A stretch of DNA of 64,000 nt from a virus (Duplodnaviria > Heunggongvirae > Uroviricota > Caudoviricetes). The DNA lies in IMG/VR virus record IMGVR_UViG_3300024272_000009. One strand, given 5' to 3'. The notes under the pieces were generated by a model, which was given only the letters and a program-made list of their open reading frames with translations, was not told where the DNA came from and did no database searches. The translations under genes and the position numbers were made by a program. Positions 38,192 through 62,710 of this stretch are shown piece after piece. The stretch's first letter is position 1. Each line of letters starts with the position of its first letter.

Positions 38192-40102
38192 TTATTTCTT
38201 CAATCCGGCAAGCTCGAGAAGGTCACTAAGGTCATCGTCGTCATAATTATTCTTAGCAGGTCTAGATACAGATTCAGCTATACGAGCAGATGTTTTAGTT
38301 CTTCCACCGAAAGGAAGTCTACTGAAATTGACAGTAGAATCAAGAATTTTGTCACAAACAGCATCAACATCTGAGAGAGTAAAGTTCTCATTGAGGCGGC
38401 TTGTAATTTCTGAAGGTGCAACACCGAGCATGTCAGCTTTAGATTTTACATACTTATTGAGTGACTCAATATAGCGTGCTTTATAAGCTTTTGCAAGGTT
38501 TGTTCTTTCCTGAAGTTTTTCAGTATAAACTTTTGTTTGACCTTCAAGTTTAGCTTCAAGAGCTTTAGACTCTTTAGTAAGTCTAGACACTTCTTCATTT
38601 AAGCGTCTTTCATTTGCCTTATTGCCTTCAATGCTCTCTTTTAGCTGTTGTGCTTTATTAACCTTTTCAGTTAATACTTTTACATTTTGTTGCGATTGGT
38701 TAAGTTTTTCTGTGAGCTCTTCAACTTTTGCAATTAGCTCAGGAACTTTTGCAGCTTCTGCACTAGTATTTCTAAATGCAGTTCTGTACCGGCCAAGCTT
38801 TTCTTGTAACTCTTGTTCTTTGGCATCGCCAACTGCTTTAGCTTTACGCAAATCACTAAGTTCGGTTTCCAAAGCTTCTTTCTGTCTGACCATCTCTTTC
38901 AAGCTCTCAATGACCTCGTCATCTCCGTCATCGTCGGCTGTGCCTTCATCATTGGTTACTTCTTCGATGGTTTCAACAGGAATTTCATCAGTTTCAGTCT
39001 CTATATTTGAATCTGCGACTTCTGAAGGTTCTTCTTCAGCTTCGCAGGATTTCACATTAAGAACAAGAACATCATCGTCTATGTAATGTTCGATATTATC
39101 TACAGGAGCAACTTCTCCATTGGCATCAGTAGCCTCGAATTCTACTTTAGTATCTTCGTCGAATTCTTTAAGCAACTCGATAGCATCTCCGACAGTGCTG
39201 ACATCCGCTTCACCGTCACCGGTTACATCAACTACTTCAGGCTCTTCTACCTCTGCTTCTTCTGCTTCTACAGGAACTTCTTCATCAGTAGGTTCAGCTA
39301 CATCAGCTTCTTCAGTAGCTTCCTCAGTAGTCTCTTCTTCGGCTTCCTCAGTTTCCTCTTCAGCAGGCATCTCTTCTGTTAGAATCTCTTCATCGTCTGC
39401 CCAAGGAATATCCTCAGCAGTAAGTCTAGTTGACTCTTCGATAGGTGCCTCGTCAGAGATTTCATTTTCAATATCAATATTTAAATTTTCTAGTGCCTTT
39501 TTCATAGTATCTTTATCCTCTTCTTTTGCAGCCTTATAAGACTCAGCTAAAGCTTTCTTAAGCTTAAGGCCTTCAGAGTCTAAAGATTCACAAACATTAA
39601 GTCTTGCTTTTTTAACTGCAGGTAGTTGAACAATATCCCAAGTTTCCAAAAAGAATGTTTCTGGGTCAACCTGGTTGTTGTCCATTACATCACCGGAACC
39701 ACGTGAACTGATTCCAGGAACAAATCCATAATCTACGAGCGTTTTTAGCAGTCTACCGTTAGGAGTATCTAGAATATCAACATAAGCACAAAGGTCGTCG
39801 CCGACAATCTTTGGCACCTCAGGAATACAAGCACATGCCTGCTTCATATCTGTCTCTTCTCTATCAGCGGGATGACCGAGTTCTAGGAAAAGTGCTTTAG
39901 TAGCTACCTTCTCTAAAAAGATGTCATCTTGTAGGGCTCTCTCCCAAAGTGGCTTGTTGTAAAGTCTACCGTTTCTGGTGCTTTCAACACACGTAGCAAT
40001 AGGACCATACAATCTGCCTAAAATATGTCTAGAGGCCATCTCCTCAGGTGATAGTGGCTGCATCTGTAACGCTTCAAGAATTCTTTTTTTATTTAAATCC
40101 AT
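38192..40102 (-). CDS. putative prohead protease / scaffolding fusion protein
   Basis: 636 aa. An N-terminal globular domain of about 170 aa is followed by a hyper-acidic linker (EEPE/EEAEE repeats) and a C-terminal K/E-rich coiled-coil. It sits between the portal and capsid genes. Confidence 0.4.
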   Translation of the reverse strand: MDLNKKRILEALQMQPLSPEEMASRHILGRLYGPIATCVESTRNGRLYNKPLWERALQDDIFLEKVATKALFLELGHPADREETDMKQACACIPEVPKIVGDDLCAYVDILDTPNGRLLKTLVDYGFVPGISSRGSGDVMDNNQVDPETFFLETWDIVQLPAVKKARLNVCESLDSEGLKLKKALAESYKAAKEEDKDTMKKALENLNIDIENEISDEAPIEESTRLTAEDIPWADDEEILTEEMPAEEETEEAEEETTEEATEEADVAEPTDEEVPVEAEEAEVEEPEVVDVTGDGEADVSTVGDAIELLKEFDEDTKVEFEATDANGEVAPVDNIEHYIDDDVLVLNVKSCEAEEEPSEVADSNIETETDEIPVETIEEVTNDEGTADDDGDDEVIESLKEMVRQKEALETELSDLRKAKAVGDAKEQELQEKLGRYRTAFRNTSAEAAKVPELIAKVEELTEKLNQSQQNVKVLTEKVNKAQQLKESIEGNKANERRLNEEVSRLTKESKALEAKLEGQTKVYTEKLQERTNLAKAYKARYIESLNKYVKSKADMLGVAPSEITSRLNENFTLSDVDAVCDKILDSTVNFSRLPFGGRTKTSARIAESVSRPAKNNYDDDDLSDLLELAGLKK

Positions 40103-41222: not shown

Positions 41223-43178
41223 TTAGTTATTTTCAGAGAAATCTTTTTCCGCATCTAAGTCACTTGGTGAGGGGAGGTCATCTTCAGTAAGAATTATATT
41301 ACTAAGAACATCCTGCTCCTCTAACAACAAATCACCGGTGCCTACATTAAATGCTTCTAGATTAAGTTCCTCAAGTGAGCCCAAATCTATATCTTCTGCT
41401 GGTTCCTCGGCTGCTTCTGTTTCCACTTCTGTATCTTCTGCTGTGGTGTTTTCTTCATTTTCAGCTTCGAGAGCTGCTTCAGCAGCGGCTTCTTCAATAG
41501 CCTTAATTTCGGCATCTATTTCCACATTAATATCATCGCCATAGTCAAGTCCAGCAAGAAGAGCTTTTAAGATACGCAGACGTCTAGGCTTATCTTCAAT
41601 ATCAGTAAATAATCCCTGCATACTGCTGATTGCATTAATCTTGTTAGAAAGGTCAGCACGGTAGTCAATTTCTTCCTGAGTGATAGGCGCTTTCATTTTA
41701 AGAGTAAAGTTATTGAGATAGCTCTTGAGGCCCTTGTTAAGAAGGAAAAGATTGATAGCGTCTGTGAGTGCCTGAATCATTGCATTCTGAACTCTCTTAA
41801 CACCTTTAGCATAAACGCTAGAAAGAATAGTAAGAGAAGTACCCCCATTAAAGCCTGCACCATCGTCGGTCCAGCCAAAGTACTGCTTAGGAATACCATA
41901 AGAAGAATAGAACTTATTATTCCACCAGTCAAGGTCAGCGAGGTTCTTTACTTCAACATCACCGCCGACTGCTTCTACGGTAATATTTCCTTGGCCACCG
42001 TGTGTTGCAAAATAAATATTATTTTCCATTGGGCCTGGGTTGTTATACTCATTCATTGAGTTGCCAACGTTTAGAGCACTCTTTTGCTCCATCATTTCCT
42101 TAACGCGACGTAGGGTTTGCTGAACTTGTTCTTTCGGCATGTCACCGACTTCTACGCCAACTTTACGTACTACACTTGAACGGGTAATTCTGTTTAAGAG
42201 TGCGGCGCTTTCAAGTAGTGCTTTCTCTCGCCAAATCTTATAAGAATCGTATAGAAGTGATTTACCACGTCTAACACTATAAGATTGGCTCTTTGTACCA
42301 TCAGCATCGATAAACAAATCAACAGTTTCTGGGTATCTAGTAAAGTTATCTTCAAGACAGGCGTGAACAAAGTCATCAGCTTGGAATACATTTACATCTG
42401 CAGACTTCATTCTAAAGTTATATGTACCAGAAGCAGTTACACCTGTAAAAGCTGATGTATTATCTACGGTAGATGTTTCATTTGGTGTTTCTATATAGCC
42501 GTAGGTTTTACCAAATTTGGTAAGCTCAAACATTGTGCCAGGGTCATCTACTGCTTCTACATAGTAGCTGTATGGGTCTGAAGCGGTGTGTAAATTAAGT
42601 TTAACTGCCTCATCAAGAGTCTCTTTCTTAGGCTCTTCATCTATACTTATATCAAAAGCTTCATTAAGTGTATTTCTCGCAGAATATACTTTATCAATGT
42701 TATCAGTCTTAAATAATGCATCGGCATAGTCTGACTCTCGATAAAGTCGTAGGTACACATCACCGTATTTTAATAGTGCATACGTCCAGCCAAACATATT
42801 TTTATCTGCATTCATGGTGTTTAGCAAGTAGTTAACAAATTTACTAACTTTTGGGTCGCTAGCCTCACACCAAATAACATGTCCATTGTCTGCAGGCTCA
42901 CAGACATCTTCTGCATACGTTCTTAATATCGAGGCGACAGAAGAATCCTGAGCCATAGTATCAATTAACTGATATATCTGGTCACGTGAATTTGAGATAC
43001 TGGTAAAGTTCTCAAGTGCTGCAACATCAAGCTTGCTATTTAAGCCAGCTTCTATAATATTGTCTACTAAAGTTTTATTGACGTCAATATCTAGCGTGGT
43101 CGTATTGTCAAGTGTTATTGGTTGTGTCTGACTGCCGACTAGCGCATGCGACGTTTTAGTTGTAGTATTTTCCGCCAT
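41223..43178 (-). CDS. putative portal protein
   Basis: 651-aa ORF immediately downstream of the large terminase. The C-terminus is an acidic tail. The call rests on size and position. Confidence 0.55.
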   Translation of the reverse strand: MAENTTTKTSHALVGSQTQPITLDNTTTLDIDVNKTLVDNIIEAGLNSKLDVAALENFTSISNSRDQIYQLIDTMAQDSSVASILRTYAEDVCEPADNGHVIWCEASDPKVSKFVNYLLNTMNADKNMFGWTYALLKYGDVYLRLYRESDYADALFKTDNIDKVYSARNTLNEAFDISIDEEPKKETLDEAVKLNLHTASDPYSYYVEAVDDPGTMFELTKFGKTYGYIETPNETSTVDNTSAFTGVTASGTYNFRMKSADVNVFQADDFVHACLEDNFTRYPETVDLFIDADGTKSQSYSVRRGKSLLYDSYKIWREKALLESAALLNRITRSSVVRKVGVEVGDMPKEQVQQTLRRVKEMMEQKSALNVGNSMNEYNNPGPMENNIYFATHGGQGNITVEAVGGDVEVKNLADLDWWNNKFYSSYGIPKQYFGWTDDGAGFNGGTSLTILSSVYAKGVKRVQNAMIQALTDAINLFLLNKGLKSYLNNFTLKMKAPITQEEIDYRADLSNKINAISSMQGLFTDIEDKPRRLRILKALLAGLDYGDDINVEIDAEIKAIEEAAAEAALEAENEENTTAEDTEVETEAAEEPAEDIDLGSLEELNLEAFNVGTGDLLLEEQDVLSNIILTEDDLPSPSDLDAEKDFSENN

Positions 43179-45286: not shown

Positions 45287-46243
45287 TTAGTTTTTATTCT
45301 GTTTATCGTTTTCTTCTGAATCTTCCTTAGGTGCCTCTTTAGGTTCCTCAGCAGGTTCTTCAACCTTTTTAGTAGGCTTTTCCTCAGGTTTTTCTTCCTC
45401 AGGCTTTTCAGCTTTCTGTTTACCGCCAGTTCCAGTAACAGGATTTTTATTAGAACCTTTCTGGAATTTACCGCGGTTCTTACCGTATTCATTAACTATA
45501 TCAATAAGGTCTTTTCCTGTTTCGAGATCTTCGTTGTCGGCCACAAGTCCATTCTCAGCAGCCTCATCAGCAGGAACTCCATATAGTTTAGGGAACACAA
45601 GTTTCAAGAAAGCTTCTGGCTTTTTCTCTGATAGGAAGTGACAATAGTTATTTATAACTGACGCAACTTTGAGCATCCAGTCGCCATTACTGAGAACAAG
45701 TAGGATATGTTTACAACCTCTTCCCTTATCATCATTTGGGTTAGCGATTCCTTTACCAGGGCCAGGGTCGGCAGAAGAATCATCTACAGAAACATTTTTT
45801 ATAATGTTCCAGTGTGCAAAGCGATATTTAAAGTCAGGACAGGTGCATTTTACATAAACATCTGTAGTATTAAAAACTTTTGTGAGTGACTGAACTATTG
45901 TTCGGAATTCCATCTTATTGTTGTTGTTTTTAATATTTTTCTGCATTTCTCCAATGACGCCTTCGATTTTGATGGTAACAGTGTACTCATCATTTTCACC
46001 GACAACAGGAATATTTACTTGAAGTATATCTTGTTTGAACAGCTTGTTCATATCTATTTCATTATAATTCTTAACAGCGTTAGCAATCTTAGAATACTTC
46101 TTACGTTCCATTCTATTTTTGCCACGCTCTTGGTTTTTATAGGCCCCAGCATTTCTAGATTGGGCTATCAAAGAAGTTCTGTTTGCCTCAGTCAGCTTAA
46201 GAAGCTCTGATAAGCATTGTTCTTGCAAAGTTTGTTTTCTCAT
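45287..46243 (-). CDS. SWIM-type zinc-finger protein with Lys/Glu/Pro-rich tail
   Basis: 318 aa. The motifs CTCPDFKYRFAHWN...GCKHILLV give a C-x-C...C-x-H SWIM-like layout. The C-terminus reads KPEEEKPEEKPTKKVEEPAEEPKEAPKE. Confidence 0.45.
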   Translation of the reverse strand: MRKQTLQEQCLSELLKLTEANRTSLIAQSRNAGAYKNQERGKNRMERKKYSKIANAVKNYNEIDMNKLFKQDILQVNIPVVGENDEYTVTIKIEGVIGEMQKNIKNNNNKMEFRTIVQSLTKVFNTTDVYVKCTCPDFKYRFAHWNIIKNVSVDDSSADPGPGKGIANPNDDKGRGCKHILLVLSNGDWMLKVASVINNYCHFLSEKKPEAFLKLVFPKLYGVPADEAAENGLVADNEDLETGKDLIDIVNEYGKNRGKFQKGSNKNPVTGTGGKQKAEKPEEEKPEEKPTKKVEEPAEEPKEAPKEDSEENDKQNKN

Positions 46244-46295: not shown

Positions 46296-46334
46296 AATAA
46301 AAATAAAGCACTCTATCAAAAATAGAGTGCTTTT
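46296..46334 (-). terminator. Rho-independent terminator after gene 46338..47801
   Basis: aaagcactcta (46305-46315) pairs with tagagtgcttt (46323-46333). The stem is shared with the terminator at 48669-48696. Confidence 0.75.
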
Positions 46335-46337
46335 ACT

Positions 46338-47801
46338 TTATATTTTAAGAGTACCTCGGATATTATAGTATTTCTTAGGTATTTTGTTCATTGCTATATC
46401 AAGTGTATTTGAGAAGTCATACTTTCCATTTTCATTTGCATGGACTTCAATAACAAATGGAAGTCTTCTTATCGCACTTAACGCAGCGTCAACCTCAGAA
46501 GCCTTTAGATTATATATAAAGAACATTCCGTTATCTTGGATAACTGGCTGTGTGCCGGCAGCTCTAAAAAGCTGGTTATAAATATCAACTCTTTGCTGTC
46601 TATCGAGTTTTTCCTCAAGAGATAATCTCTTTGATACAAGCTCATTTCTGTAGTCTTTTAGCTGGTCCAAATATCCTTTATTACGAAGCTCTTTAAAAGT
46701 TAAATTTTCTGTAGAGTATTCACCTTTCGAGATGCCTTTTTTACGGAGTTTATCATATATCTCTTCTAGCATCTTAACTACTTTCTTTTCATCTTCAAGC
46801 TTATCTGCTTTTATATCATCAATAAGTTTTTTACACTTATCTTCCCACTCATCAACAAGTTTGTTTAGTGCTTCCTTGTCATAGTCTGGGATATCTTCGT
46901 GAACAGGCTTTTTAATCCACTTATTTTTCTTTACGGAATAAACACCATTGCTTACTCTTGTGCTCTCCTCAGTTTCAACAAAGATTTCAAGCGGAATGCC
47001 AAACAATTTGATATCTAAATTTTTATTAAATAGTGAACGATATGCACTATATAGAGCATTTGCTATATCGGTAGAGTAGTCAGCGGCTTTAGCGTTAGCA
47101 AGAACGTGAAGGTCAATATCACTATCTTTTGTATAATTATAGCTAGCATTAGAGCCAATCATAAGGATATCATCAACTTTTATTTTAACATCCTGCTCTT
47201 TAAGGTCTGCTAAAAATTCGTCGACAATTTCAAGCATCTTATCTCTTACTTGATCTTTTAGCAACTCTTCTTTTGTAAAGAGCTTATTGTTTAAGCTATC
47301 ATGTTTCTCAATAGCTTCGGTTAGTTCTGTTTTAGACTGCTCGCCAAGCTCTTGCTCAATTAACTTGGTTACTGTAACACGGTCACATAGATTTGCAATA
47401 TACTGCGCGTCAGTTAACCAAACATTTTTAGCGATATTTTGTAAATCTTGTGAGGTATAGCCCCAATTTTTTAGAGTTCTTTTTAATTGGTCAATTAGCT
47501 CTTTCCAATCAATTGCTACAGCAACGATAAGATACTTTAAAGCTACATCAGCTTTTTGCTGTGGTGGATTCTTAGACTTTCTTTGAACTTTGTTATAAGA
47601 AGCCACCGATTTATCATACTTAGCTTTACTACAGTTATATGCAATACCCCAAGGCGTTTCATTAAAGTGAGCTTTATTCCAAGTATCGCGCTCAGGTGTG
47701 TTCTGTTTTGCTTCATAACTTAATTTTGCTGTTAGAAGTTTTTCAATATCTTCTTGTGTAGGTATTACTAATTTAGGGTCTGTAATCACTGGCGCCGCCA
47801 T
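46338..47801 (-). CDS. Pol-beta-superfamily nucleotidyltransferase-domain protein
   Basis: 487 aa. The central segment GSNASYNYTKDSDIDLHV matches the hG[GS]-x9-13-DhDh nucleotidyltransferase signature. A downstream acidic segment reads EIFVETEE. Confidence 0.5.
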   Translation of the reverse strand: MAAPVITDPKLVIPTQEDIEKLLTAKLSYEAKQNTPERDTWNKAHFNETPWGIAYNCSKAKYDKSVASYNKVQRKSKNPPQQKADVALKYLIVAVAIDWKELIDQLKRTLKNWGYTSQDLQNIAKNVWLTDAQYIANLCDRVTVTKLIEQELGEQSKTELTEAIEKHDSLNNKLFTKEELLKDQVRDKMLEIVDEFLADLKEQDVKIKVDDILMIGSNASYNYTKDSDIDLHVLANAKAADYSTDIANALYSAYRSLFNKNLDIKLFGIPLEIFVETEESTRVSNGVYSVKKNKWIKKPVHEDIPDYDKEALNKLVDEWEDKCKKLIDDIKADKLEDEKKVVKMLEEIYDKLRKKGISKGEYSTENLTFKELRNKGYLDQLKDYRNELVSKRLSLEEKLDRQQRVDIYNQLFRAAGTQPVIQDNGMFFIYNLKASEVDAALSAIRRLPFVIEVHANENGKYDFSNTLDIAMNKIPKKYYNIRGTLKI

Positions 47802-47802
47802 A

Positions 47803-48564
47803 TTAATCCTCCATTCTATCTAGTCGCATAGGAATAACAAACTTGAGATTACAACCGTCACAACATCTGCCATCATCTGCAGACATAAAAGGCTCAGGGT
47901 TATTTCCATGACCTTCGATAGGTTCACCACAAATACAACAAAAGCTTTCTTTTGCTTCTGTTAGTTTTTCACCAAATACATTAACAGCGTCAAAATCAAG
48001 ATTAAAGAAGCTCTCCTCAAGTTCTGTTGCGTCTGTCATTCTATCCTCATACTCTGCCTTAAATTCTTTTTCAGGAGCTTTGTCCACGTTAGCAAAGTGT
48101 TTACGGTCCTCTTCTTTCTTAATTGAGAGGTCGTAGTCCATTACTTTTACTCTATTTTTATCATAAAGAATACCATCATCATAATAATAAATAATGTCAC
48201 TATTCATAAGTTTAGTTACATCTTTATCATCTCCAAGATTATTTAGAGTATAAACAGAGCAGTTAGCATTATCTAGTTCAATAAGAGCTTTTAAGATCTC
48301 AGCTTTATTTGAACAGAAGATATTTTGAGGACGAATATAGTATCTACGAACGTAACGTTTAGCCTCCTTTAGCTCAACACTTTCAGTCATACCACAGCCT
48401 TCAGTGCCTTCAGCAGAAGTCTCCACACAGTCTGTCCCCATAGCCTGATTGAATCTACCTATATTTAAAGAAATATCACCAGTTGTATATGTGATAGAAT
48501 CATAAGGCTTTTTCTTAGTTTTTAGTTTTTTCTCCTCTGTAATAGGAGTTTTATTTATTTTCAT
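47803..48564 (-). CDS. hypothetical Cys-rich protein
   Basis: 253 aa. The C-terminus reads CCICGEPIEGHGN...CCDGCN. A GC-rich leader precedes the RBS. Confidence 0.45.
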   Translation of the reverse strand: MKINKTPITEEKKLKTKKKPYDSITYTTGDISLNIGRFNQAMGTDCVETSAEGTEGCGMTESVELKEAKRYVRRYYIRPQNIFCSNKAEILKALIELDNANCSVYTLNNLGDDKDVTKLMNSDIIYYYDDGILYDKNRVKVMDYDLSIKKEEDRKHFANVDKAPEKEFKAEYEDRMTDATELEESFFNLDFDAVNVFGEKLTEAKESFCCICGEPIEGHGNNPEPFMSADDGRCCDGCNLKFVIPMRLDRMED

Positions 48565-48661: not shown

Positions 48662-48697
48662 ATAAAGAAAAGCACTCTAAATATTTAGAGTGCTTTT
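48662..48697 (-). terminator. Rho-independent terminator after gene 48702..49118
   Basis: The palindrome is aaagcactctaaata / tatttagagtgcttt. Confidence 0.75.
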
Positions 48698-48701
48698 ATT
48701 G

Positions 48702-49118
48702 TTAATTGTATAAGTCTTTGTCGGTAAGTGGCTCACCTGTTGGCTCGTCAAAATCTACAAAGTACTCAAAAGGTTCACTAATATCGAGGTCTATTGTTTT
48801 TGCTTGAGTATTTTCGTCTTCCGGCTCAAACATTATATCAGGTTCTGCCTGAGGTTCTATTTTAACAACTTCCGGTTCTTTAACGTGTACAACATCTTGT
48901 GTAGTATAATTGATATCATCTAGATTTTCTAGACTTCCAATGAATACATAGTAACTCGTAATCAGGTTTTTTAGGAGCTGCTTTACTTTTTTGCCTTCAT
49001 CAGAGTCAGCTATATTAGCGAGCTGTGTCTGAAGTTGCTCAATATCTTGCCAGCTTTTACTACAGAGCTCATCAATAAAATCTTTTGTTACCGTAAGTTT
49101 ATCTTTTAATTCTACCAT
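48702..49118 (-). CDS. hypothetical acidic protein
   Basis: 138-aa ORF. Confidence 0.5.
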   Translation of the reverse strand: MVELKDKLTVTKDFIDELCSKSWQDIEQLQTQLANIADSDEGKKVKQLLKNLITSYYVFIGSLENLDDINYTTQDVVHVKEPEVVKIEPQAEPDIMFEPEDENTQAKTIDLDISEPFEYFVDFDEPTGEPLTDKDLYN

Positions 49119-49138: not shown

Positions 49139-50842
49139 TCAGAAGGAATACTGCATAGTACCACCACGACCTTTTAGGTCACGAGGAAGTCTTGGTGCGT
49201 TAACACCATTACGCCATAGATACCAAACAAAACCAGGAACAGTGTAGGACAATGCTTTTGGCCCGTCCCACCAATCTTCCATGTCAGAGTCGGTCATAAT
49301 AACAACGTTAGTTGCTTCAGTTGTTATTATGTTTTTAATTATGTCGTTCCAGGCACGGGTACCACCTTCTGCTCTTGCTGATGCAGCATCAGTATGAACA
49401 TGATTAGAAAAATAGTAAATATTGATTTTTATCTTACCATCTTCTTGCATTTTTGCAAGAGCTTCTACTGCCTGATTTCCTACTTCTACATCGCTCTCAT
49501 CCCAAGAACCAGACTGGTCAAAATAGAAATCGATGATAGGAATTTTTTTATTTGGAAGCTCATTAATTTTCTGTCCTTGTCTAAGAACACCTGCACCACT
49601 ATTTCTACGACTTATTGCAGACCAAGTGTCATCACGCTCTTCTTCGTAAGAAACCTGTAAAGCAATACCACGCTGCAAGCTATCCATAAACGCTTGGAAA
49701 CCTTGGAACGAGCTTCTGGATTTTGTTTTATATTTGTCTGCTTCTTTTTCTCTTGCTTTAATTGCTTGAGTTTCAGCTCTTATTTGAGCTGCATCTTCTG
49801 CTGAAAGTTCCGCCTGTGTTTTACTACTCGCCAAGTCAGTTTTTATCTCTTGAGCTCTTGCTTGACGATCTTCTTCGGAAGAATACGTCAAATCACCAGT
49901 ACCAAGAGCATCTATAGCATCGAATACTCTGTTAACTAATTGATTAAACTCTTCATCTGACACGTCTGCAATATTTTTTGCAACAGCCTCTGTGAGAGCT
50001 TCAAGTGCCTCAATAGCGCTTTCGAGCTCAGATATAAGTGCTTTTGATGCACCGCGTTCATTAGCTTTTCTCAAAGCTTCTTTTGCTGCAAGCAACGTGC
50101 GCTCTCTTTTTACTTTACGAGCCTCTGCCTTACTGCTAATGCCATTATCAGTCATAGCATCTCGAGTATCGTCGTCTAGCCAATCATGCTCATCTGGAAA
50201 TTCTTCTTCATCGCTAAATTCAGCCTCTTCATCTGAATCTTCAGTTTCGTCAGCTATCTCAGACTCACCGTCTAACTCCGTGTTAGTATCCTCAGAGTTT
50301 TCACCTTCCTCAGAATCTTCCTCAGAATCTTCCTCAGAAGAATCTTCAGCTTCTTCCTCTTCTACTTCTTCAGAATTTTCAGTTTCGCTTGTTTCTTTAG
50401 TATCACCAGTATCGGCGCTTTCAGAGTCGTCAGTATCATCTTGCTCAGAGCTCTCGTCGGAGCCATCAAAGTCACTTGACTCCCCTGACTCACTTGAGTC
50501 CTCTGAATTGCTCTGGTTATCTTGGCCCCTTGTTTCAGGCTCTTCCTCATCTTCAGCTTTATTGTGTTTTATTTTATCGAGTAGCTTTTCTTCATCTTCT
50601 ACTTCAAGGTCATCCCCACCGCCTTTTGGATGGTGTTTTACTGAAGGCTGCAGCAAATCAGGGTCAATCTCTACTTCGATCTCTCCTCCGTTTCCGTTAA
50701 GGTCCGGACCACCACCTGCGCCTCCAGAGCCTAAGTCAACTCTCGAAGAAAGAATAGCATCGATCGCTTCTAAAGCTCCACGTTTTGCATCAGGGTTAGA
50801 AAAGTCTATTCCGAGTTTACTTAATATATCTTTAATTTCCAT
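49139..50842 (-). CDS. vWA-domain protein with long S/E/D-rich disordered region
   Basis: 567 aa. A C-terminal MIDAS-like DQSGSW is followed by a Rossmann-like pattern. The centre is 200 aa of E/D/S low complexity. Confidence 0.55.
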   Translation of the reverse strand: MEIKDILSKLGIDFSNPDAKRGALEAIDAILSSRVDLGSGGAGGGPDLNGNGGEIEVEIDPDLLQPSVKHHPKGGGDDLEVEDEEKLLDKIKHNKAEDEEEPETRGQDNQSNSEDSSESGESSDFDGSDESSEQDDTDDSESADTGDTKETSETENSEEVEEEEAEDSSEEDSEEDSEEGENSEDTNTELDGESEIADETEDSDEEAEFSDEEEFPDEHDWLDDDTRDAMTDNGISSKAEARKVKRERTLLAAKEALRKANERGASKALISELESAIEALEALTEAVAKNIADVSDEEFNQLVNRVFDAIDALGTGDLTYSSEEDRQARAQEIKTDLASSKTQAELSAEDAAQIRAETQAIKAREKEADKYKTKSRSSFQGFQAFMDSLQRGIALQVSYEEERDDTWSAISRRNSGAGVLRQGQKINELPNKKIPIIDFYFDQSGSWDESDVEVGNQAVEALAKMQEDGKIKINIYYFSNHVHTDAASARAEGGTRAWNDIIKNIITTEATNVVIMTDSDMEDWWDGPKALSYTVPGFVWYLWRNGVNAPRLPRDLKGRGGTMQYSF

Positions 50843-50866
50843 AATTATCTCTGCCTTTCACAGTTT

Positions 50867-52027
50867 TTACATTGCATTAATAGCATCTTGTAACTGTCTA
50901 AGGGTCTCATCATCAAACTTACTAGAATCTAGCTGACGAACAACCTCATTCCAAGCGTCTTTATACTCCTGTGGGTTTACTTGACGCTTAACATTAAATT
51001 TTAATGGATTATAATTAATATTACCACCAAGATTTTTTAAAACATCCGTAGCAATTAGTTTATCTTCTGGTGTATATAAAATACAAACTACTTCGCCCGT
51101 AAGAGGATTTAAAACATCGCATGCTTGCTGTGGTGCCGATACTGCTATATCATCAATAAGGTCAAGTAGGCGCTGCTTATCAGCATCAGAAGTAAAATCT
51201 TTAAATTCGTCATATAGCCGCTGTACAAGCTTTTGGAAAACTTCTGGCCATTTTTTATAAGTTTTAGACTTCATAAATACGTCAATAGGCGCCTTTATAC
51301 CGGAAGGCTTCATTATGTTCTGATATAGGCTTGCTGCTTTGGCAGTACTATACTCAATGTTGTCTACAGCAACTCTGCCATTATGAGTTCTTGTGTTTGG
51401 CCGCCAATAAGGGTCACTTCTGATTGCGCTGTTTATTCTAATTATTTCCTTAGAAAGCTCTTCATACATTTGCTCAAGAGACATCTTATCCCAGCCTCTA
51501 TGATCCTCAGTTACTAAACCGCCAATTATTTCACCATTTAGCATCATGTTACGTACAATCTGCTTATCAGTAGCACTATAACGTTTATTGGAGATTTCAA
51601 AGTCTTCAATAATGTTTAAAAGGTTATGAAGTGTACTACTATATTTAATATGTTCATAAGCTTCGTCCGGGTCATGTGCATGAAGTTTTTTAAACACATA
51701 CATCATTCTAATCTGATGCATCATTAAATTATGAGCCATTTCGTGGCGCATTAATACATCTAACTGATTAAAAATACCTTCGCCACTACCAAGAAAGCCA
51801 TCGCTAATAAAAACAGTCGCATCATCAAAAGAAATTGCAGCAGTAAAATCAGGATGCTTCTTAGAGTCTATGATATTGAAATCTAGTTTCCAGAATCGTT
51901 CTGCATATTTTCTATGCCCTTTATCTATTAAAAGCTGGCAGAGAGCTTTTTTGACCTGTCTCTCTCTGCCAGTCATAAAGTGCTTAGTAATATCAGAAGA
52001 TTCAAGTAATGCTCTATTTATATGCAT
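50867..52027 (-). CDS. HExxH zinc metallopeptidase-like protein (SprT/WLM-like motif)
   Basis: 386 aa. The motif RHEMAHNLMMH has the form HExxH-x4-H. Confidence 0.5.
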   Translation of the reverse strand: MHINRALLESSDITKHFMTGRERQVKKALCQLLIDKGHRKYAERFWKLDFNIIDSKKHPDFTAAISFDDATVFISDGFLGSGEGIFNQLDVLMRHEMAHNLMMHQIRMMYVFKKLHAHDPDEAYEHIKYSSTLHNLLNIIEDFEISNKRYSATDKQIVRNMMLNGEIIGGLVTEDHRGWDKMSLEQMYEELSKEIIRINSAIRSDPYWRPNTRTHNGRVAVDNIEYSTAKAASLYQNIMKPSGIKAPIDVFMKSKTYKKWPEVFQKLVQRLYDEFKDFTSDADKQRLLDLIDDIAVSAPQQACDVLNPLTGEVVCILYTPEDKLIATDVLKNLGGNINYNPLKFNVKRQVNPQEYKDAWNEVVRQLDSSKFDDETLRQLQDAINAM

Positions 52028-52052
52028 AGTATAAATCTCCTTTATACTAGAA

Positions 52053-53507
52053 TTAAAGTGAGAAGTCGAAACTCTTAATACGGTTTAGTGCGTCAGCTGA
52101 GCTAACCTTTGCAGCAGCACCTGCCGCAGATGCAGTTGAACCGAAGAGGTCAGTATCAGTCTCATCACCGCCAGCACCGAATACACTATCAAAATCATCA
52201 CTATCTGAAGTAGTACTCTTAGCGCTTGAAGTTGTTGGGGCAGGCTCTTCATTGTTATCTCCGGCACCTGGCATAATAACGTCAGGCTCAACCCAAGAAT
52301 CAAGGATCTCATGGATTATTTCTTTATCCTTATCTAGGAATTTAGACTTTTGGTCTACCCAAGCAAGGAATTTATTTTTATCATGACCATGTTTCATAAT
52401 AGCGTCGGTAATTGAGCGCTGGTTTAACATCTTTGATTTTGTCTGAAACAAGTCAAGTAAGTCATCGCGTGAGTCAAACTCAAAACGATAGTCTGCAAGC
52501 AATGCGTTAGCTAAATTTAATCTCTTCTTAGCTCTAATGTAAAGAGCATTGTAATTCTCGTCATGAGGAATGCTCTTAATAACTTTTTCAGGAATGTACC
52601 AGTTAATATATTTAATTGCTTCCTCAGGAGTAGAGTCCCAATCCATAGTGTCTACAAAACGAGACATTTCAGCGTCATTAAGCTCCATTGCGCCAGGGTC
52701 TGTGGGAACTGCAGGGTTAATACAAGCTACAGTAAAGAGCAGGTTATCAAAGTGTCTATAACCATCAGGACCATTACCGTCAATTACGTGCTCATTAATT
52801 AGTGAAAGAAGTACGGCACGAAGCTTAGCAGGAGCTCTGTTAAATTCATCAAGGAATAGTACAGATCTTTCTTTGTCTAGCGCATCAAGTGAGTTAGAAT
52901 AAGATCTAGCTACTGTATGTACACTTCTGCCATCATCTGTTGTTTCTGTTGTATCAACAGGGAAACCGTTAAGGATAGCGCCGAGGTCATCGTTTTTAGC
53001 ATTGAGGTAGAATAGATTTACACCTCTATCCCTTGCCCACTGCTTTGTGATACCGGTTTTACCGGAACCAGGAAGTCCTGAAATTAGAATGTCAGTACCA
53101 TCATGAGTACCAATAGCTTTAGACTCGAATGAAGCCGCAAGGCAGTCATCAAGCGCATCAGTAAGAGCACTTCTTACATCAAGAGGTGCCCAAGTAGCAG
53201 TATCAAAGCCTTTAGCATAAGTCTTGATTTCATTTGCTACTTTTTCTGCTTTAGCATCGGAGTAAGTTTCCTCGCCATCAGAAGCTTCTTCAGCAGCAGC
53301 CTTAACTGCGTCAGCGATTTCATCTACAGGCGCATTTACAACATTATCGATAACTAGCTCGTCCGCAGAAGCTTCAGCGGCTGTATCTTCAGCCTCAGTA
53401 ATAACTTCTTCTACAAGCTCTGTATCTAAAATACTTTCAGTTATAATTTTATTAATTTTCATTGTTATCCTCCTATTAATCTTTGCGCATCCAAGTGTGC
53501 AGCTCAT
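52053..53507 (-). CDS. MoxR-like AAA+ ATPase
   Basis: 484 aa. Walker A is GLPGSGKTG. Walker B and sensor follow as LFLDEFNRA, the hhhDEhNRA pattern typical of the MoxR/AAA_5 family. N- and C-terminal acidic extensions flank the core. Confidence 0.65.
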   Translation of the reverse strand: MSCTLGCAKINRRITMKINKIITESILDTELVEEVITEAEDTAAEASADELVIDNVVNAPVDEIADAVKAAAEEASDGEETYSDAKAEKVANEIKTYAKGFDTATWAPLDVRSALTDALDDCLAASFESKAIGTHDGTDILISGLPGSGKTGITKQWARDRGVNLFYLNAKNDDLGAILNGFPVDTTETTDDGRSVHTVARSYSNSLDALDKERSVLFLDEFNRAPAKLRAVLLSLINEHVIDGNGPDGYRHFDNLLFTVACINPAVPTDPGAMELNDAEMSRFVDTMDWDSTPEEAIKYINWYIPEKVIKSIPHDENYNALYIRAKKRLNLANALLADYRFEFDSRDDLLDLFQTKSKMLNQRSITDAIMKHGHDKNKFLAWVDQKSKFLDKDKEIIHEILDSWVEPDVIMPGAGDNNEEPAPTTSSAKSTTSDSDDFDSVFGAGGDETDTDLFGSTASAAGAAAKVSSADALNRIKSFDFSL

Positions 53508-54539: not shown

Positions 54540-56408
54540 CTAATCAATACTGATAATTCCTCTGCATTTAGGGTAGGCAGAGCAACCATAGAATAGTTTT
54601 CCAAATCTGCTTCTTCTAACTACCATAGGTTTGCCGCAATTTGGGCACTCTTTCTCTGGCATCTCTGGAGCAATACCGGTTTCATTAGTGGCTCCAATAA
54701 TATCTTGTAAATTTTTATAGAAATTTTCCATAAAGTCAAGCCAAAGAATTTTACCGCCGGCAATTTTATCAAGGCTTTCTTCCATTTCTTTAGTATAATT
54801 TAAATTTATTAAAGTAGGGAATGACCTATTACAGTAGTCAGCTAATTGCATACCACGATCAGTAGGAACAATGTGCTTTTCTTCCAACTTTGCGTAACCT
54901 CTTGTTGGGCTTAAAATTGTTTCTACTATTGTTACATAAGTAGATGGTCGGCCGATACTTCTATTCTGAAGCTCTTTAACTAAACTTGCCTCTGTATACC
55001 TAGGCTTAGGTTGTGTAAATTTTTTAGCTGCCTCAAGCTCAGCATCTTCCAAGGTTTCGCCAACGGTAAATATAGGCGTAGAAGCTATGTCAGAAGTATC
55101 ATCGTATTCATATACTGCTTTATAACCAGCACTTAAAAGCTCTTTTGAGCTAAGCGTAAATTTATGCCCGTTATTATTAATTATATAAATTGTTTCTGAA
55201 ATAACTGCATTTGGCATTGCTGAAGCAACAGTACGTTGCCATATTAGCCTATAAACTTTTGCAAGTAGTTCATTGCCAGTGGTAGCCTCTACAATATCTG
55301 GAGTCAGATTCGGGTTTGTGACTCTAAGGGCTTCGTGCCCATCTTGGTCTGTTTCTTTTTGTTTAGACTTTCTTGGCCCTACATAACTGGCTGCGCCGTA
55401 AGTATTTTCTATAAAAGTTTTTAGTTCTGGAATAAATTCTTGTGCAAATTCCGTAGAGTCTGTACGCATATACGTAATCAAACCAATGTGTTCGCCAGCT
55501 AGACTAATTCCTTCAAAGAGTTTTTGCGCACAGCTCATAGCATCTTTTACTTTAAGACCGAGCTTATTCGCTGCCTCCTGTTGAAAAGTAGCAGTACAAA
55601 ACGGCGGTTTTGGAGACTCTTGGTGCTTAACCACTTTGGTATCTTCAATTATATAAGCACCACCTTTGCAGTTGTTTATAACCGCATCAACGTCAGCTTG
55701 CCTTGAAAATTTATCAATAACCTCGTCATTATACCCAGCATATTTTGCTTTAAAAGCTGTACCATTTTTTATAAAGTTTAAATATAGATTAAAATACATT
55801 TCTGGTACAAAATCCATAATTTCTTTTTCTCTGTCTGAAACAAGTTTAAGTCCAACGGACTGACACCGCCCAACTGACTTAGCACCAAGATACTTTTTCG
55901 CTAAAGGACTAAGACCGTAGCCAATAAGTTTATCTATCATCATTCTGGTTAGCCCAGCATTTACGATATTATCATCAAAAGGTACAGGATTTTCTAATGC
56001 ATATACAACTGCTTTAGGTGTTATTTCATGCATAACGATCCTAAAGCACTTGTCAACAGGCAGTTCACAAAATTTAATTAAGCTCCACCCAATTACAAAG
56101 CCTTCTCTATCTTGGTCGGTTCCAATATAAATTTTATCTGCAATTTTTGCCTGTGCGATAATATCTGCTACTACTTTTTGCTTATCATCAGCAATAGCCA
56201 GATTCATTCTAAATTTTTGCTTTGGATATATGCCTGAATTATAAGCAGGTCCACCATCGCCAAGTTTCATAATGTGACCGACAGAGGCCATTACTACTGC
56301 TTTTGCATAACCAGCCTTTTTCAGTATTCCTGAGATAGTTTTTACCTTATTAGGCGATTCGACTATTACAAGTATCCTTTCATTGTTTGTTTTCACTTTG
56401 CTGCTCAT
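54540..56408 (-). CDS. type IA DNA topoisomerase (Topo I/III-like) with C-terminal zinc ribbon
   Basis: 622 aa. The TOPRIM motif reads ILVIVESPNKVKTI. The acidic triad reads IYIGTDQDREG. The C-terminal ribbon is CPNCGKPMVV...CSAYPKC. Confidence 0.85.
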   Translation of the reverse strand: MSSKVKTNNERILVIVESPNKVKTISGILKKAGYAKAVVMASVGHIMKLGDGGPAYNSGIYPKQKFRMNLAIADDKQKVVADIIAQAKIADKIYIGTDQDREGFVIGWSLIKFCELPVDKCFRIVMHEITPKAVVYALENPVPFDDNIVNAGLTRMMIDKLIGYGLSPLAKKYLGAKSVGRCQSVGLKLVSDREKEIMDFVPEMYFNLYLNFIKNGTAFKAKYAGYNDEVIDKFSRQADVDAVINNCKGGAYIIEDTKVVKHQESPKPPFCTATFQQEAANKLGLKVKDAMSCAQKLFEGISLAGEHIGLITYMRTDSTEFAQEFIPELKTFIENTYGAASYVGPRKSKQKETDQDGHEALRVTNPNLTPDIVEATTGNELLAKVYRLIWQRTVASAMPNAVISETIYIINNNGHKFTLSSKELLSAGYKAVYEYDDTSDIASTPIFTVGETLEDAELEAAKKFTQPKPRYTEASLVKELQNRSIGRPSTYVTIVETILSPTRGYAKLEEKHIVPTDRGMQLADYCNRSFPTLINLNYTKEMEESLDKIAGGKILWLDFMENFYKNLQDIIGATNETGIAPEMPEKECPNCGKPMVVRRSRFGKLFYGCSAYPKCRGIISID

Positions 56409-56562
56409 TAGATCTCTCCTTATGTAAACTTTCTTCTAAGAGTTGTCTAATAACAGCAGAAATACTAACTGAACGTTTGAAAGCTTCTAATCTAAGCTCT
56501 TCTCGTAATTCGTCAGATATTTCTAAGCTTATCATCTTCTTTGCCATTATTTTATTCCTCAC
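56380..56562 (-). CDS. ribbon-helix-helix DNA-binding protein
   Basis: 60 aa. KMISLEISDELREELRLEAFKRSVSISAVIRQLLEE shows the RHH beta-alpha-alpha pattern. It overlaps the topoisomerase start by 29 nt. Confidence 0.5.
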   Translation of the reverse strand: MRNKIMAKKMISLEISDELREELRLEAFKRSVSISAVIRQLLEESLHKERSNEQQSENKQ

Positions 56563-57347
56563 TTATGAGACTTTTTGTGTACTTTTGACACAAAGTTTTT
56601 AAACTCGGCTCTTTGTCTGGCCTTTTCAGAGGCACCTGCCGTCGCAATAGCTTTGTTAGCTGCCTTATTTGCCTTTGCATGTCGGTCTGTCTCGTGCTCA
56701 GACTCTACTACTGTAATACGACCATTGATAACATTTTCAGTAAACTTGAGATTTCTAAACTGCTTAGCAGCAACATCGTCTGATTCGATAACAGTCTTTA
56801 AACTTTCGATACGCGCAGGTAAGAAGGTATCTTTGTAGAAAGGAATAATCTCAGCAAGGTCTGACTCTTCGATCTTGCCATCTTCTTCAATGTCAGAAAC
56901 AAGGCCAAGCGCACTAGGAAGAACTCCGTCAATAATTTGAGCCTGTTGATCAAACATGCTTGCCGCAATGCCTATAAGCTTGTTATCTTCGTACTTAAAA
57001 TCATCATTGTAATAAACAACAGTAATTTCTTCAGGTCTACCGATTACAATCTCTTTGCCAGGCATTGATGCACAGGTTTCGATAACAATGTTGAGGCCCT
57101 TCTTTTTCGTGATAATAGGGTTAATAAAAGTCTTAATCTGGTCATTAAATCTTAAACAAAAGATACGCTTATTAATACCAATCTGAGGAGCAGAAAGTGC
57201 AATAAGATCTGGATTCGCATTAAGAACTTCTTTGATCTTGCTGATAATCTCAGTGCCTTCCTCAGTTTTAGGACCTTCTTCTGTTAAAAATGTTAAAGGT
57301 TCTACTGGTGTGCTAAGTACTTCAGCATCAGTAATAATTGTTTCCAT
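56559..57347 (-). CDS. peptide deformylase-like protein with degenerate catalytic motif
   Basis: 262 aa. PDF motif I is present as ALSAPQIG, and motif II is ETCAS (EGCLS-like, Cys kept). In place of HEXXH the sequence reads QQAQIIDG. A C-terminal K/A-rich extension of about 100 aa follows. Confidence 0.5.
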   Translation of the reverse strand: METIITDAEVLSTPVEPLTFLTEEGPKTEEGTEIISKIKEVLNANPDLIALSAPQIGINKRIFCLRFNDQIKTFINPIITKKKGLNIVIETCASMPGKEIVIGRPEEITVVYYNDDFKYEDNKLIGIAASMFDQQAQIIDGVLPSALGLVSDIEEDGKIEESDLAEIIPFYKDTFLPARIESLKTVIESDDVAAKQFRNLKFTENVINGRITVVESEHETDRHAKANKAANKAIATAGASEKARQRAEFKNFVSKVHKKSHK

Positions 57348-60847: not shown

Positions 60848-62710
60848 TTAGCACAGTTCACTGATGCCGTGCTCATTTTTTATTACTTTAATTTCCGAGT
60901 CTACTGGAATTTCCAGCTCATCAACATGATGAGAAATAATAAAGACTGACTCGACAGTTTGTAGTTCTTTCTCAAGAAGTTGCATTACTGCTTGACAACT
61001 TTTCTTATCCAGGAAGTCTGTTATCTCATCGAGTACAAGAATATTTGCGCTTAGTCCGAGATAGGAGTTTAAAAGATCTCTTATAGCAAGCTGCAAGATT
61101 AGGTCAACTCTCTGTTTTTCGCCGCCGGACAGGCCATCAAATGATTTACCACAATATGTAATATCAAGGGCATTGCCATTTATTTCAAGCACAAGCTCTC
61201 GTGTACCAAAAACTGTTGCACAGTAATCTTTTGCTTTATTATCAATATAGTTAATAATATTTGTAAGTAAATACCCACGAAAATCTCGTTTGGTCAGCTG
61301 GTCCATTTTCTTAACAATTAAGAGGCGCTGATCTAAGTCTTCTTTTGATAAGCTTGTGAGTGAAATAATATTAGTCAACCTTGCAATTTCGGCCTCAAGA
61401 CAGCTAATTTCATCCTGCTGTCTTTTAACGTAGCTATCCCAGTTTTGTTTATCATAAACAAGTTTATTATAGTTATTTCGCTCAAGCTCGAGAGCCGCTA
61501 TACAGCTTGCGTAGTCAGTTCGTGCTTTTTGTAGCACGGCCTTTTCTGATGCAATAGTTTTATTCAAAGACTCAAACTCGTCCTTAAAAGCATTTTCAAT
61601 TTGTGTTTTATACTCAGAGTGTTTTGCTTCACACTGACTGACTTCTGTATTCAAATCATCAAGTGCTTTATAAAGTTTCTCCAAGTCTCTTTCCATGTAG
61701 CCAGTATCTGGCTTTTGTACATTTGGAATGTGCTGACCACAAGTAGGACAAGTATCAATGATAGACTGAAGCTTTTTAATTTCTTTTTGCATTGCCTTAA
61801 TATCAAATTCAAGTCTAGCTTTGTTTGTAGTAAGGGCAGTACTAGAAGCAGTATAAGCAGCAAGCTCTTCATTGCTTACCTTGGCCTTTTCATTGGTAAG
61901 CTCAAGAAGTCTGGTATTCAGAACTTCAAGTTCTGCCTCTGCTGAAGCAATCAAGACATCAAGCTGTGCCTTCTGTTGTTCTGCTTGTGCTATCTTTACA
62001 TCATGGCAAGCAAGCAATAAATCAAAATCAGGACGATGTTGATTTTCTAAAGTAGTTTTTAGTCTATCGATGTTTGTTGTGTAGCTATTTAACTGTGTTC
62101 TATTTGCTAGCAGGCTATCTTCAAACTCTCGTATCTTATCACTTAATTCTTGCTGTCTGGCGGCGATACGAGTCTTAAGGTCATCAATCATAAAATCAGA
62201 TTTAGTAAGTCTTTCAAGCAAGTCCTTTCGTCCAGACGGACTAAAAGAGGAAAACTTATTTGGCATACCCTGTCCAATAATGATTGTAGAGGCAATAAGA
62301 TCTTTTGAAAGCTCTGGCAAAAGCTCTGACAGCTTTTTCTCTGACTCTCTTATACCCTTACCACTAAGGTCAATATCATTCTTAAAAATTTTTAAATCTG
62401 ACTTTGGTGCTAGCGTTCTAAGCAAATTATACAAATCTTTATTATATAAAAATTCTAGCTGAATATAGCAGTCAGGTTCATCTGTGTGAATGTTTTTAAG
62501 ATTTGTTTTAATACCATTAATAGTTTCACCAGTTAAAGCATAACAGATTGCACTCCATAAGAAGCTCTTTCCTGAACCATTTGATAGAGCATTGTCTTTT
62601 ATAAAATTGTTTTGTCCAGAAACTAAACAAAACCCACGATTTTGAAGCTCAAGCTCTACATGCCCGTAGCTACCAAAATTGTGTATTACTACTTTTTTAA
62701 ATTGGATCAT
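60848..62710 (-). CDS. Rad50/SbcC-like recombination ATPase (T4 gp46-like)
   Basis: 620 aa. The N-terminal Walker A reads SNGSGKSF. A long central coiled-coil has a CPTCG zinc hook. The C-terminal signature and Walker B read LSGGEKQRVDL...ILVLDEITDFLD. Confidence 0.8.
   Translation of the reverse strand: MIQFKKVVIHNFGSYGHVELELQNRGFCLVSGQNNFIKDNALSNGSGKSFLWSAICYALTGETINGIKTNLKNIHTDEPDCYIQLEFLYNKDLYNLLRTLAPKSDLKIFKNDIDLSGKGIRESEKKLSELLPELSKDLIASTIIIGQGMPNKFSSFSPSGRKDLLERLTKSDFMIDDLKTRIAARQQELSDKIREFEDSLLANRTQLNSYTTNIDRLKTTLENQHRPDFDLLLACHDVKIAQAEQQKAQLDVLIASAEAELEVLNTRLLELTNEKAKVSNEELAAYTASSTALTTNKARLEFDIKAMQKEIKKLQSIIDTCPTCGQHIPNVQKPDTGYMERDLEKLYKALDDLNTEVSQCEAKHSEYKTQIENAFKDEFESLNKTIASEKAVLQKARTDYASCIAALELERNNYNKLVYDKQNWDSYVKRQQDEISCLEAEIARLTNIISLTSLSKEDLDQRLLIVKKMDQLTKRDFRGYLLTNIINYIDNKAKDYCATVFGTRELVLEINGNALDITYCGKSFDGLSGGEKQRVDLILQLAIRDLLNSYLGLSANILVLDEITDFLDKKSCQAVMQLLEKELQTVESVFIISHHVDELEIPVDSEIKVIKNEHGISELC

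Follow-up and report, generated by a model that had tools for sequence, protein, structure and literature searches.

The window analyzed here is a 64,000-nt stretch of DNA (IMG/VR record IMGVR_UViG_3300024272_000009) from an uncultured ~220-kb phage of gut or rumen origin, and all positions given below are those of the whole stretch. Between 49139 and 53507, its minus strand carries three tightly packed, co-oriented genes for an ATPase, a peptidase-like protein, and a von Willebrand factor A (vWA) protein, in that order. Overall, the locus is best explained, and probably so, as a three-gene split version of a phage module in which a MoxR ATPase is paired with a protein of the type DUF2201_N metallopeptidase - linker - VWA. 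The identity of the module can be stated with high confidence; a mechanism that combines a chaperone and a protease, argued by analogy, is slightly favored, and a role in virion assembly is put forward tentatively. A first-pass annotation of this DNA had described a triad of adjacent, co-oriented genes by their motifs, and all of the open reading frames (ORFs) and motifs that it quoted are present:

52053..53462, minus strand: gene 1, MoxR-class AAA+ ATPase, 469 aa when read from its probable start, with the ORF reaching 53507 (Pfam AAA_3/AAA_5, PHROG 1297)
50867..52027, minus strand: gene 2, zincin-type metallopeptidase-like protein, 386 aa (homology and an HExxHxxxxH motif)
49139..50842, minus strand: gene 3, putative acidic-linker adaptor with a vWA domain and its metal ion-dependent adhesion site (MIDAS), 567 aa (hhalign and MIDAS residues)

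By profile alignment, genes 2 and 3 correspond to two halves of a single DUF2201_N-linker-VWA protein, since the termini of fused relatives align with gene 2 and gene 3, respectively. A profile search with the gene 2 alignment recovered 362 relatives, including fused proteins of 500–680 aa at E-values of 1e-18 to 1e-31. The fused proteins start with the pattern RHEILHxxLxH ... NIAADYEISNRGYTExDK ... GLVTED, continue into a polar, acidic low-complexity linker, and end with IPxINVYFDQSGSW ... GGT ... NVIIMTDSD ... VPGAVWLL. With hhalign, residues 17–211 of gene 2 aligned to the N-terminus of the fused proteins (E 2.5e-39) and the last ~240 residues of gene 3 to their C-terminus (E 5.8e-51). The family PF13203 (DUF2201_N, "putative metallopeptidase domain") was found above the cut-off in seven of ten fused proteins and below it in two more, at up to 3e-15. 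PF09967 (DUF2201, "VWA-like domain") appeared in four of the ten scanned, all just below the cut-off. The fused relatives also aligned with the vWA domain of gp25 of phage N4 (hhalign, E 8.6e-7). When the window peptidase profile was aligned to N4 gp25 alone, only an 18-residue motif was covered; thus, the link between gene 2 and DUF2201_N rests on intermediates. PDB sequence searches with the fused-protein profile and with N4 gp25 gave no significant match, and none of 50,697 phage records was matched in a BLAST search with P0377, a fused relative of metagenomic origin. The case for the identity of the peptidase and the vWA protein is therefore one of sequence profiles and motifs.

The product of gene 2 is predicted to be a zincin-type metallopeptidase-like protein of the DUF2201_N type. 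Its N-terminal DUF2201_N-like domain (residues 17–211, 51395-51979) contains HEMAHNLMMH (51716-51745) and NIIEDFEISNKRY (51578-51616), and a C-terminal domain of 175 aa (residues 212–386, 50870-51394) is additional when compared to the fused relatives. The HExxH motif, which might have been incidental, was borne out as a conserved motif and not a chance one: no substitution occurs at R94, H95, E96, H99, H104, N138, D142, or D154 among 110 relatives with 21–52% identity to the window protein, and all 118 cluster representatives that extend over the site (118 of 118) have HExxHxxxxH. That the catalytic Glu and three candidate zinc ligands never vary is an argument for catalysis being important in the window lineage. 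PF13203 is matched by 29 of the 110 relatives, and some others have weak matches to other zincin families only (M48, DUF6782, M78). The motifs compare with N4 gp25 as HEMAHNLMMH ... NIIEDFEISN against HELWHVGLLH ... NYACDIYINN, with an N...D..I.N pattern in common and the same spacing. An earlier assignment to SprT/WLM-like peptidases was dropped, as neither the window protein (E ≤ 0.1) nor the 110 relatives (E ≤ 0.01) match SprT-like or WLM families. The third His of WLM proteins lies one position further on (HExxHxxxxxH), whereas that of DUF2201_N proteins lies at +5, as in the window. The C-terminal domain was predicted confidently over about residues 220–330, with a predicted local distance difference test (pLDDT) score of ~90, and gave no structural match.

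Gene 3 encodes a predicted vWA/MIDAS protein in which four regions may be considered. Following a conserved N-terminus of ~59 aa, residues 60–232 (50147-50665) form a disordered region of 173 aa that is composed of 46% D+E, 13% S, and 5% K+R and has a net charge of approximately -70. A basic, helical segment of ~200 aa (residues 233–430, 49553-50146) precedes the vWA domain itself (residues ~431–567, 49142-49552). The MIDAS is complete, as had been anticipated from DQSGS (49505-49519), with T495 in GGT (49358-49369) and D518/D520 in TDSD (49283-49294); D442, S444, S446, T495, and D518/D520 (D-x-S-x-S ... T ... D) are invariant in 30 vWA homologues. The first-pass annotation had placed the vWA domain behind a 200-aa acidic array. 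The array is there, at ~173 aa, but it does not stand directly before the vWA domain since the helical segment lies between them. Among 101 clade members, the acidic linker ranges from 128 to 233 aa with 31–51% D+E and 5% K+R while its sequence drifts; in the fused relatives it is much less acidic (18–28% D+E). Because composition is kept while length and sequence vary, the linker would be expected to serve as a tether or motor handle rather than a specific binding surface. The structural model of gene 3 has a pLDDT of 63 overall and 72–88 in the vWA domain.

Gene 1 was proposed to encode a MoxR/AAA_5-type ATPase, and family searches agree with its prediction as a MoxR-class AAA+ ATPase. The matches to Pfam AAA_3 (2.9e-7, 30.9 bits, cut-off 27) and AAA_5 (2.3e-6, 28.1 bits, cut-off 22) are above the gathering cut-offs, and PHROG 1297 ("ATPase") was matched at 2.4e-10. 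The Walker A motif GLPGSGKTG (53052-53078) and the Walker B/MoxR signature LFLDEFNRA (52833-52859), together with FTVACINP and DAEMSRF, are kept in an alignment of 18 distant homologues, in which the signature reads G.xGxGK[TS], hLFLDExNRA, FT[VI]AxINP (sensor-1 Asn), and D.A...RF (arginine motif). Walker A and Walker B are also common to N4 gp24 and to the ATPase of the Burkholderia jumbo phage BCSR5. A PDB sequence search with the window ATPase returned no significant match, and a Pfam scan gave none to bpMoxR. The most likely start codon is the ATG at 53462, and not the first ATG of the ORF at 53507, because a Shine-Dalgarno sequence, TAGGAGGA, lies 6 nt upstream and a 469-aa protein is called in an identical contig. 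The ATG at 53462 is located just past the stop codon of the upstream gene, while that at 53507 overlaps this gene. The N-terminal region of the protein is acidic, the AAA+ core spans residues ~130–300 when numbered from the start of the ORF (52608-53120), and the C-terminal tail (52056-52265, minus strand) is of low complexity with an acidic/Ser-Thr composition. Within the tail, short acidic-aromatic motifs are repeated (DDFDSVFG, DTDLFG, and a terminal FDFSL), which could be docking motifs.

The three genes are kept together in relatives, a point on which the first-pass annotation had staked its proposal. Close homologues, all of them metagenomic, number 514 for the gene 2 protein and 245 for the gene 3 protein, many on contigs of 210–245 kb; in a 222-kb contig, synteny is kept at 65–72% identity. 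A distant set of 26 IMG/VR loci was obtained by scanning with the fused-protein alignment (viral contigs of 17–214 kb, 22–41% identity). An ATPase homologue adjoins the peptidase/vWA region in all 26, directly upstream in 24 and downstream in two. Ten of these loci have the fused form, ~13 are split near the linker into different frames, and three are interrupted by in-frame TAG only. The three proteins are predicted to be a functional unit. In nine distant loci, the module is immediately adjacent to genes that are homologous to the head-tail adaptor and neck genes of the window.

The TAG codons are an observation in their own right. In L005 (6001-7503), the peptidase-vWA frame is broken only by in-frame TAG, six times and inside conserved domains, and in L013 and L024 the first interruption is an in-frame TAG in a conserved domain. 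This suggests a reassignment of the TAG stop codon in some relatives.

Among wider collections, a nucleotide BLAST search of the region and a protein BLAST search with the peptidase gave no match in the 50,697 phage records; the ATPase matched only BCSR5 and one 4.9-kb fragment from human faeces. Proteins of the gp25 type occur in 689 of the same 50,697 records, including rV5-like phages and jumbo phages resembling Rak2, 121Q, and PA5oct. A scan of a genome collection with the clade alignment identified only two contigs binned into metagenome-assembled genomes (MAGs): L033 (JAGAKD010000002.1, 174,641 bp, a Lachnospiraceae MAG from water deer cecum) and L032 (CALCHR010000172.1, a Bacteroidales MAG). 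Both are most likely phage contigs swept into bins, and are thus unreliable for assigning a host.

Further genes were considered as universal components of the module and rejected. Multi-copy genes for BspA-type leucine-rich-repeat (LRR_5) proteins flank the module in 19 of the 26 distant loci (L004–L029; e.g., L004 8659-12891); no BspA-type homologue is present in the window. For the Pol-beta-type nucleotidyltransferase encoded at 46338-47801 of the window, only 8 of 28 loci have a homologue at a distance of no more than a few kb from the module; in L022 and L028, the homologue immediately follows the module. The genes on either side in the window, encoding proteins of 333 aa (upstream) and 138 aa (downstream), are both clade-specific.

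The surroundings of the module in the window include the following features:

48702..49118, minus strand: small acidic protein, 138 aa, no family match in Pfam or PHROGs
48668..48697, minus strand: terminator-like hairpin, 13-bp stem, directly after the 138-aa gene; stem AGCACTCTA / TAGAGTGCT
41223-43178, same strand as the module: T4-type portal
38192-40102, same strand as the module: S77 prohead protease
36789-38120, same strand as the module: gp23-like capsid protein

The gene for the 138-aa protein is syntenic and 54% identical in L003 and is kept only in the close clade. Since the strong hairpin at 48668-48697 follows it, the transcription unit probably comprises the ATPase, the peptidase, the vWA protein, and the 138-aa protein; gene 2 and gene 3 are each preceded by a ribosome-binding site of their own. 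The module is positioned just upstream of packaging and head genes on the same strand (TerL, portal, S77 protease, and major capsid protein), and a tail sheath is also encoded by the window phage.

The hairpin has a twin at 46305-46333 with the same 9-bp stem, AGCACTCTA / TAGAGTGCT, and a T-run follows each. This stem pattern has two exact copies where shuffled sequences predict none, and the twins resemble a terminator or regulatory element that the phage uses more than once. They enclose two genes. One (47803-48564, minus strand) encodes a clade-conserved protein of 253 aa with a C-terminal Cys-rich, zinc-ribbon-like motif (CCICG...CCDGCN). The other (46338-47801, minus strand) encodes a protein of 487 aa with the nucleotidyltransferase motif GS...DxD, weak matches to NTP_transf_2 and Polbeta, and a match at 7e-34 to PHROG 36119, which has no assigned function. 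A neighboring gene (45287-46243, minus strand) encodes a clade-conserved protein of 318 aa, in which a SWIM-like zinc finger (CxC...CxH) is combined with a long tail rich in K, E, and P. A short distance upstream of the module, the minus strand at 54540-57347 and 60848-62710 encodes a topoisomerase IA (Toprim, Topoisom_bac, and a zinc ribbon), a peptide deformylase with a C-terminal extension of ~100 aa, and an SbcC/Rad50-like SMC_N/AAA_23 protein.

A mechanism may be proposed by analogy to NorQ/NorD, CbbQ/CbbO, BchI/BchD, and midasin. A hexamer of the MoxR ATPase would grip the vWA protein and pull or twist its long acidic linker, while a client would be held at the MIDAS by one of its acidic side chains. 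The ATPase would remodel the client through the vWA protein, and the zinc peptidase would then cut the remodeled client. In the fused forms the peptidase would be tethered by the linker; in the window it is presumably docked via its extra C-terminal domain (residues 212–386). The whole would constitute a modular, ATP-dependent protease-chaperone. Our best guess for the client is a phage-encoded protein that is handled during particle morphogenesis. The main head-maturation cleavage was set aside as a target because the window phage has its own S77 protease, and a phage-encoded target is favored because conservation spans phages of very different hosts. The position upstream of the packaging and head genes supports a role in morphogenesis, as do the nine loci in which the module abuts adaptor and neck homologues and, by analogy, the precedent of the Acidianus two-tailed virus as cited in the reviews discussed below.

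A number of results weigh against the identities and functions proposed here. Neither gene 2 nor gene 3 reaches a threshold in Pfam, PHROG, NCBIfam, or PADLOC, and their membership in DUF2201 is therefore transitive. The gene 2 protein has no direct match to PF13203 at E ≤ 0.1, and the gene 3 protein none to the vWA models of Pfam, PHROG, and NCBIfam. The profiles named in the first-pass annotation fared unevenly as a result: AAA_5 held for the ATPase, VWA was absent directly and recovered via homologues, SprT/WLM was absent, and M48 stayed below threshold for gene 2 (0.0068, Pfam). AlphaFold2 modeled the peptidase domain with low confidence (pLDDT 43–58), and fold searches with the model gave no match. 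The Foldseek matches of the gene 3 model, although nearly all at the top are vWA/integrin I domains, are weak (E 3e-3 to 0.1, TM-score 0.2–0.45). With regard to function, the window phage already has a dedicated prohead protease. The BCSR5 homologue contains HLVTH with the catalytic Glu replaced, which predicts that its peptidase-like domain is probably inactive; with this loss, proteolysis would not be required in every lineage. The proteins of the N4 virion are not known to include gp24 or gp25. Both are expressed with the middle genes, among those of DNA metabolism, and not late (PMC4193335). In phage 0305phi8-36, the MoxR/vWA region can be deleted with a growth defect only (PMC3357382). 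A search of the literature on DUF2201, N4 gp24/gp25, and phage MoxR-vWA pairs identified no functional study or demonstrated proteolysis.

The serious rival to a role in morphogenesis is the same machine aimed at the host, that is, an ATP-dependent protease-chaperone that would remove or inactivate host proteins for takeover or anti-defense. Here, the MIDAS of the vWA domain would trap substrates, and the acidic stretch might mimic nucleic acid or act as a decoy. This is considered rather unlikely. The timing of N4 expression fits it, as does the S77 protease, given which a second protease is unneeded for head maturation, and the net linker charge of roughly -70 also counts in its favor; in addition, Iyer et al. 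(2021, Viruses 13:63, PMC7824862) interpret other, patchily distributed phage zincins as host-directed. However, the pair belongs to the strictly conserved N4-like core in phages that infect hosts as different as Roseobacter and E. coli (PMC4193335), and conservation across very divergent large phages points to a phage-encoded or universal target instead of a lineage-specific defense. A linker that is unconserved in sequence and far less acidic in the fused relatives is more easily understood as a tether than as a mimic. No anti-defense family signal was found, and a PADLOC scan gave no significant match, with only the P-loop of the ATPase against IetA at E ≥ 0.0017. In an improbable variant of this reading, the split form would be a true three-component, ATP-dependent protease that, instead of helping in assembly, degrades a specific host protein (e.g., a defense or nucleoid factor), with the newly acquired C-terminal domain of gene 2 serving for docking or substrate selection and the acidic linker, conserved in composition, threaded by the MoxR ring. 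If true, this would be a phage analogue of FtsH or Lon made from MoxR, vWA, and zincin parts.

A lesser rival, and quite an improbable one, dispenses with proteolysis. The MoxR-vWA pair would merely remodel a client or load a cofactor, as do NorQD, CoxDE, and the chelatases, with HExxH serving as a structural or regulatory zinc module. No biochemically characterized MoxR-vWA pair is known to be proteolytic (PMC13036017, PMC9976466, PMC7159879), and the BCSR5 homologue without its catalytic Glu is in keeping with this. The complete catalytic set of gene 2, including Glu96, is invariant in the relatives and representatives, which is hard to reconcile with a purely structural zinc site, and no gene for a metalloenzyme client lies nearby. 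A chelatase of the CobS/CobT or BchI/BchD type, carried as an auxiliary metabolic gene, is very improbable and effectively refuted by the family searches. While the acidic-linker and vWA architecture recalls CobT and BchD, the ATPase matches PHROG 249 ("porphyrin biosynthesis") only weakly (6.7e-6), and a marginal CobT match (E 0.39) covers a low-complexity region only. No CobS, CobT, or Mg-chelatase model was significant for any of the three proteins, no CobN/BchH-like gene was present among the window ORFs scanned against family libraries, and chelatases lack the zincin that is an obligatory partner here. Three unrelated neighbors with HExxH and DxSxS by chance would be in keeping with how common short motifs such as HExxH are and with two of the three proteins lacking a direct family match. 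The probability is negligible given the gene fusions in relatives, the adjacency in all 26 distant loci, and the invariant motif residues, and this explanation was rejected.

The preferred reading, a split MoxR and DUF2201 module, adds several things to what is known. The window belongs to a large clade of uncultured phages with genomes of ~220 kb, sampled from gut or rumen, and standard annotation misses two of the three proteins in this clade. Also new are the recurrent natural split of the peptidase-vWA protein at the linker, the domain added to the free peptidase, and the unusually long, strongly acidic linker. The split marks domain boundaries and indicates that a division of the module at the linker, giving one gene for the peptidase and one for the adaptor, is tolerated. 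Since these occur as separate genes, the three parts are suggested to assemble non-covalently, and this form may be useful for reconstitution, annotation, and natural domain dissection. The pairing of MoxR with DUF2201 (metallopeptidase-vWA) is among the most widespread phage gene pairs without a measured function.

When compared to cellular systems, the window shares with NorQ/NorD, CbbQ/CbbO, RavA/ViaA, CoxD/CoxE, the Mg/Co chelatases, and midasin a MoxR-clade AAA+ ring and a MIDAS-vWA partner that is reached via a charged or flexible linker. An acidic linker ahead of the vWA/MIDAS is typical of BchD, CobT, and midasin with its D/E-rich region (reviewed in PMC7159879). For NorQ/NorD, the vWA domain inserts a finger into the ring pore, and the linker of NorD is twisted and stretched by the ATPase (PMC13036017). 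These systems differ in that they lack a peptidase and have metalloenzymes, Rubisco, or pre-ribosomes as clients, and no significant sequence match was found between them and the window proteins. The MoxR-vWA ternary conflict system (VMAP/iSTAND/FtsH/beta-propeller; Kaur et al. 2020) was considered and rejected since the third component here is a DUF2201_N zincin and the context is that of a phage, whereas the conflict systems have VMAP, an inactive STAND, FtsH, or a beta-propeller in this place and belong to bacterial defense contexts. A viral MoxR-vWA pair is described for the Acidianus two-tailed virus, p618 (MoxR) and p892 (vWA), which are cited in PMC7159879 and PMC7824862 as chaperones of tail development. 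By these descriptions, virion morphogenesis is implicated as in our proposal; the virus is archaeal and its pair is without a peptidase domain.

Closer counterparts are found in phages. BCSR5 encodes an AAA_5 protein followed by a 602-aa protein composed of DUF2201_N, a ~200-aa D/E/S acidic linker, and VWA, and the Ralstonia phage RSL1 has a protein of the same type. Both are jumbo phages that resemble the window in having the ATPase directly upstream and an extremely acidic linker of ~200 aa; they differ in that their protein is fused. BCSR5 and the window are 31% identical over the ATPase core only. The BCSR5 protein (L030 6383-8191, equivalent to MW460245.1 98906-100714) is annotated as a hypothetical protein.

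The first-pass annotation had been unable to place this combination in a known phage function, yet it matches two systems that have been described. The N4-like phages have 14 core genes, among them gp24 and gp25 of N4, both of which are listed without a known function (PMC4193335, PMC2784036). In N4, gp24 has an AAA_5 match just below the cut-off and is followed by gp25, which matches DUF2201_N (3e-87) and DUF2201 (1e-46). Like the window, N4 thus has an AAA_5/MoxR ATPase immediately upstream of a zincin (HExxHxxxxH ... N.A.D..IN) and a vWA domain, with identical motif spacing, and the pair is non-structural and conserved. Unlike the window, gp25 is a single compact protein of 380 aa with neither an acidic linker nor a helical spacer; the window has two genes, an acidic region of ~170 aa, a helical segment of ~200 aa, and an extra peptidase domain of 175 aa. 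In the group 2.2 jumbo phages, Iyer et al. described a MoxR AAA+ ATPase with a vWA co-chaperone "fused to a N-terminal metallopeptidase domain" and proposed virion assembly and peptidolytic processing by analogy with the MoxR-vWA pair of the Acidianus two-tailed virus (PMC7824862). The window phage fits this group morphologically with its T4-type portal, S77 protease, gp23-like capsid, and tail sheath. From the published description, the group 2.2 pair occupies two genes with the peptidase fused to the vWA domain, whereas the window has three; both have the same three domains and belong to large myoviruses (T4-type portal, prohead protease, capsid), and an assembly chaperone with processing is the leading hypothesis for both. 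The kind of system is thus already known from the Pfam families, the N4 core genes, and the 2021 comparative paper, and the window represents its split form and no new category.

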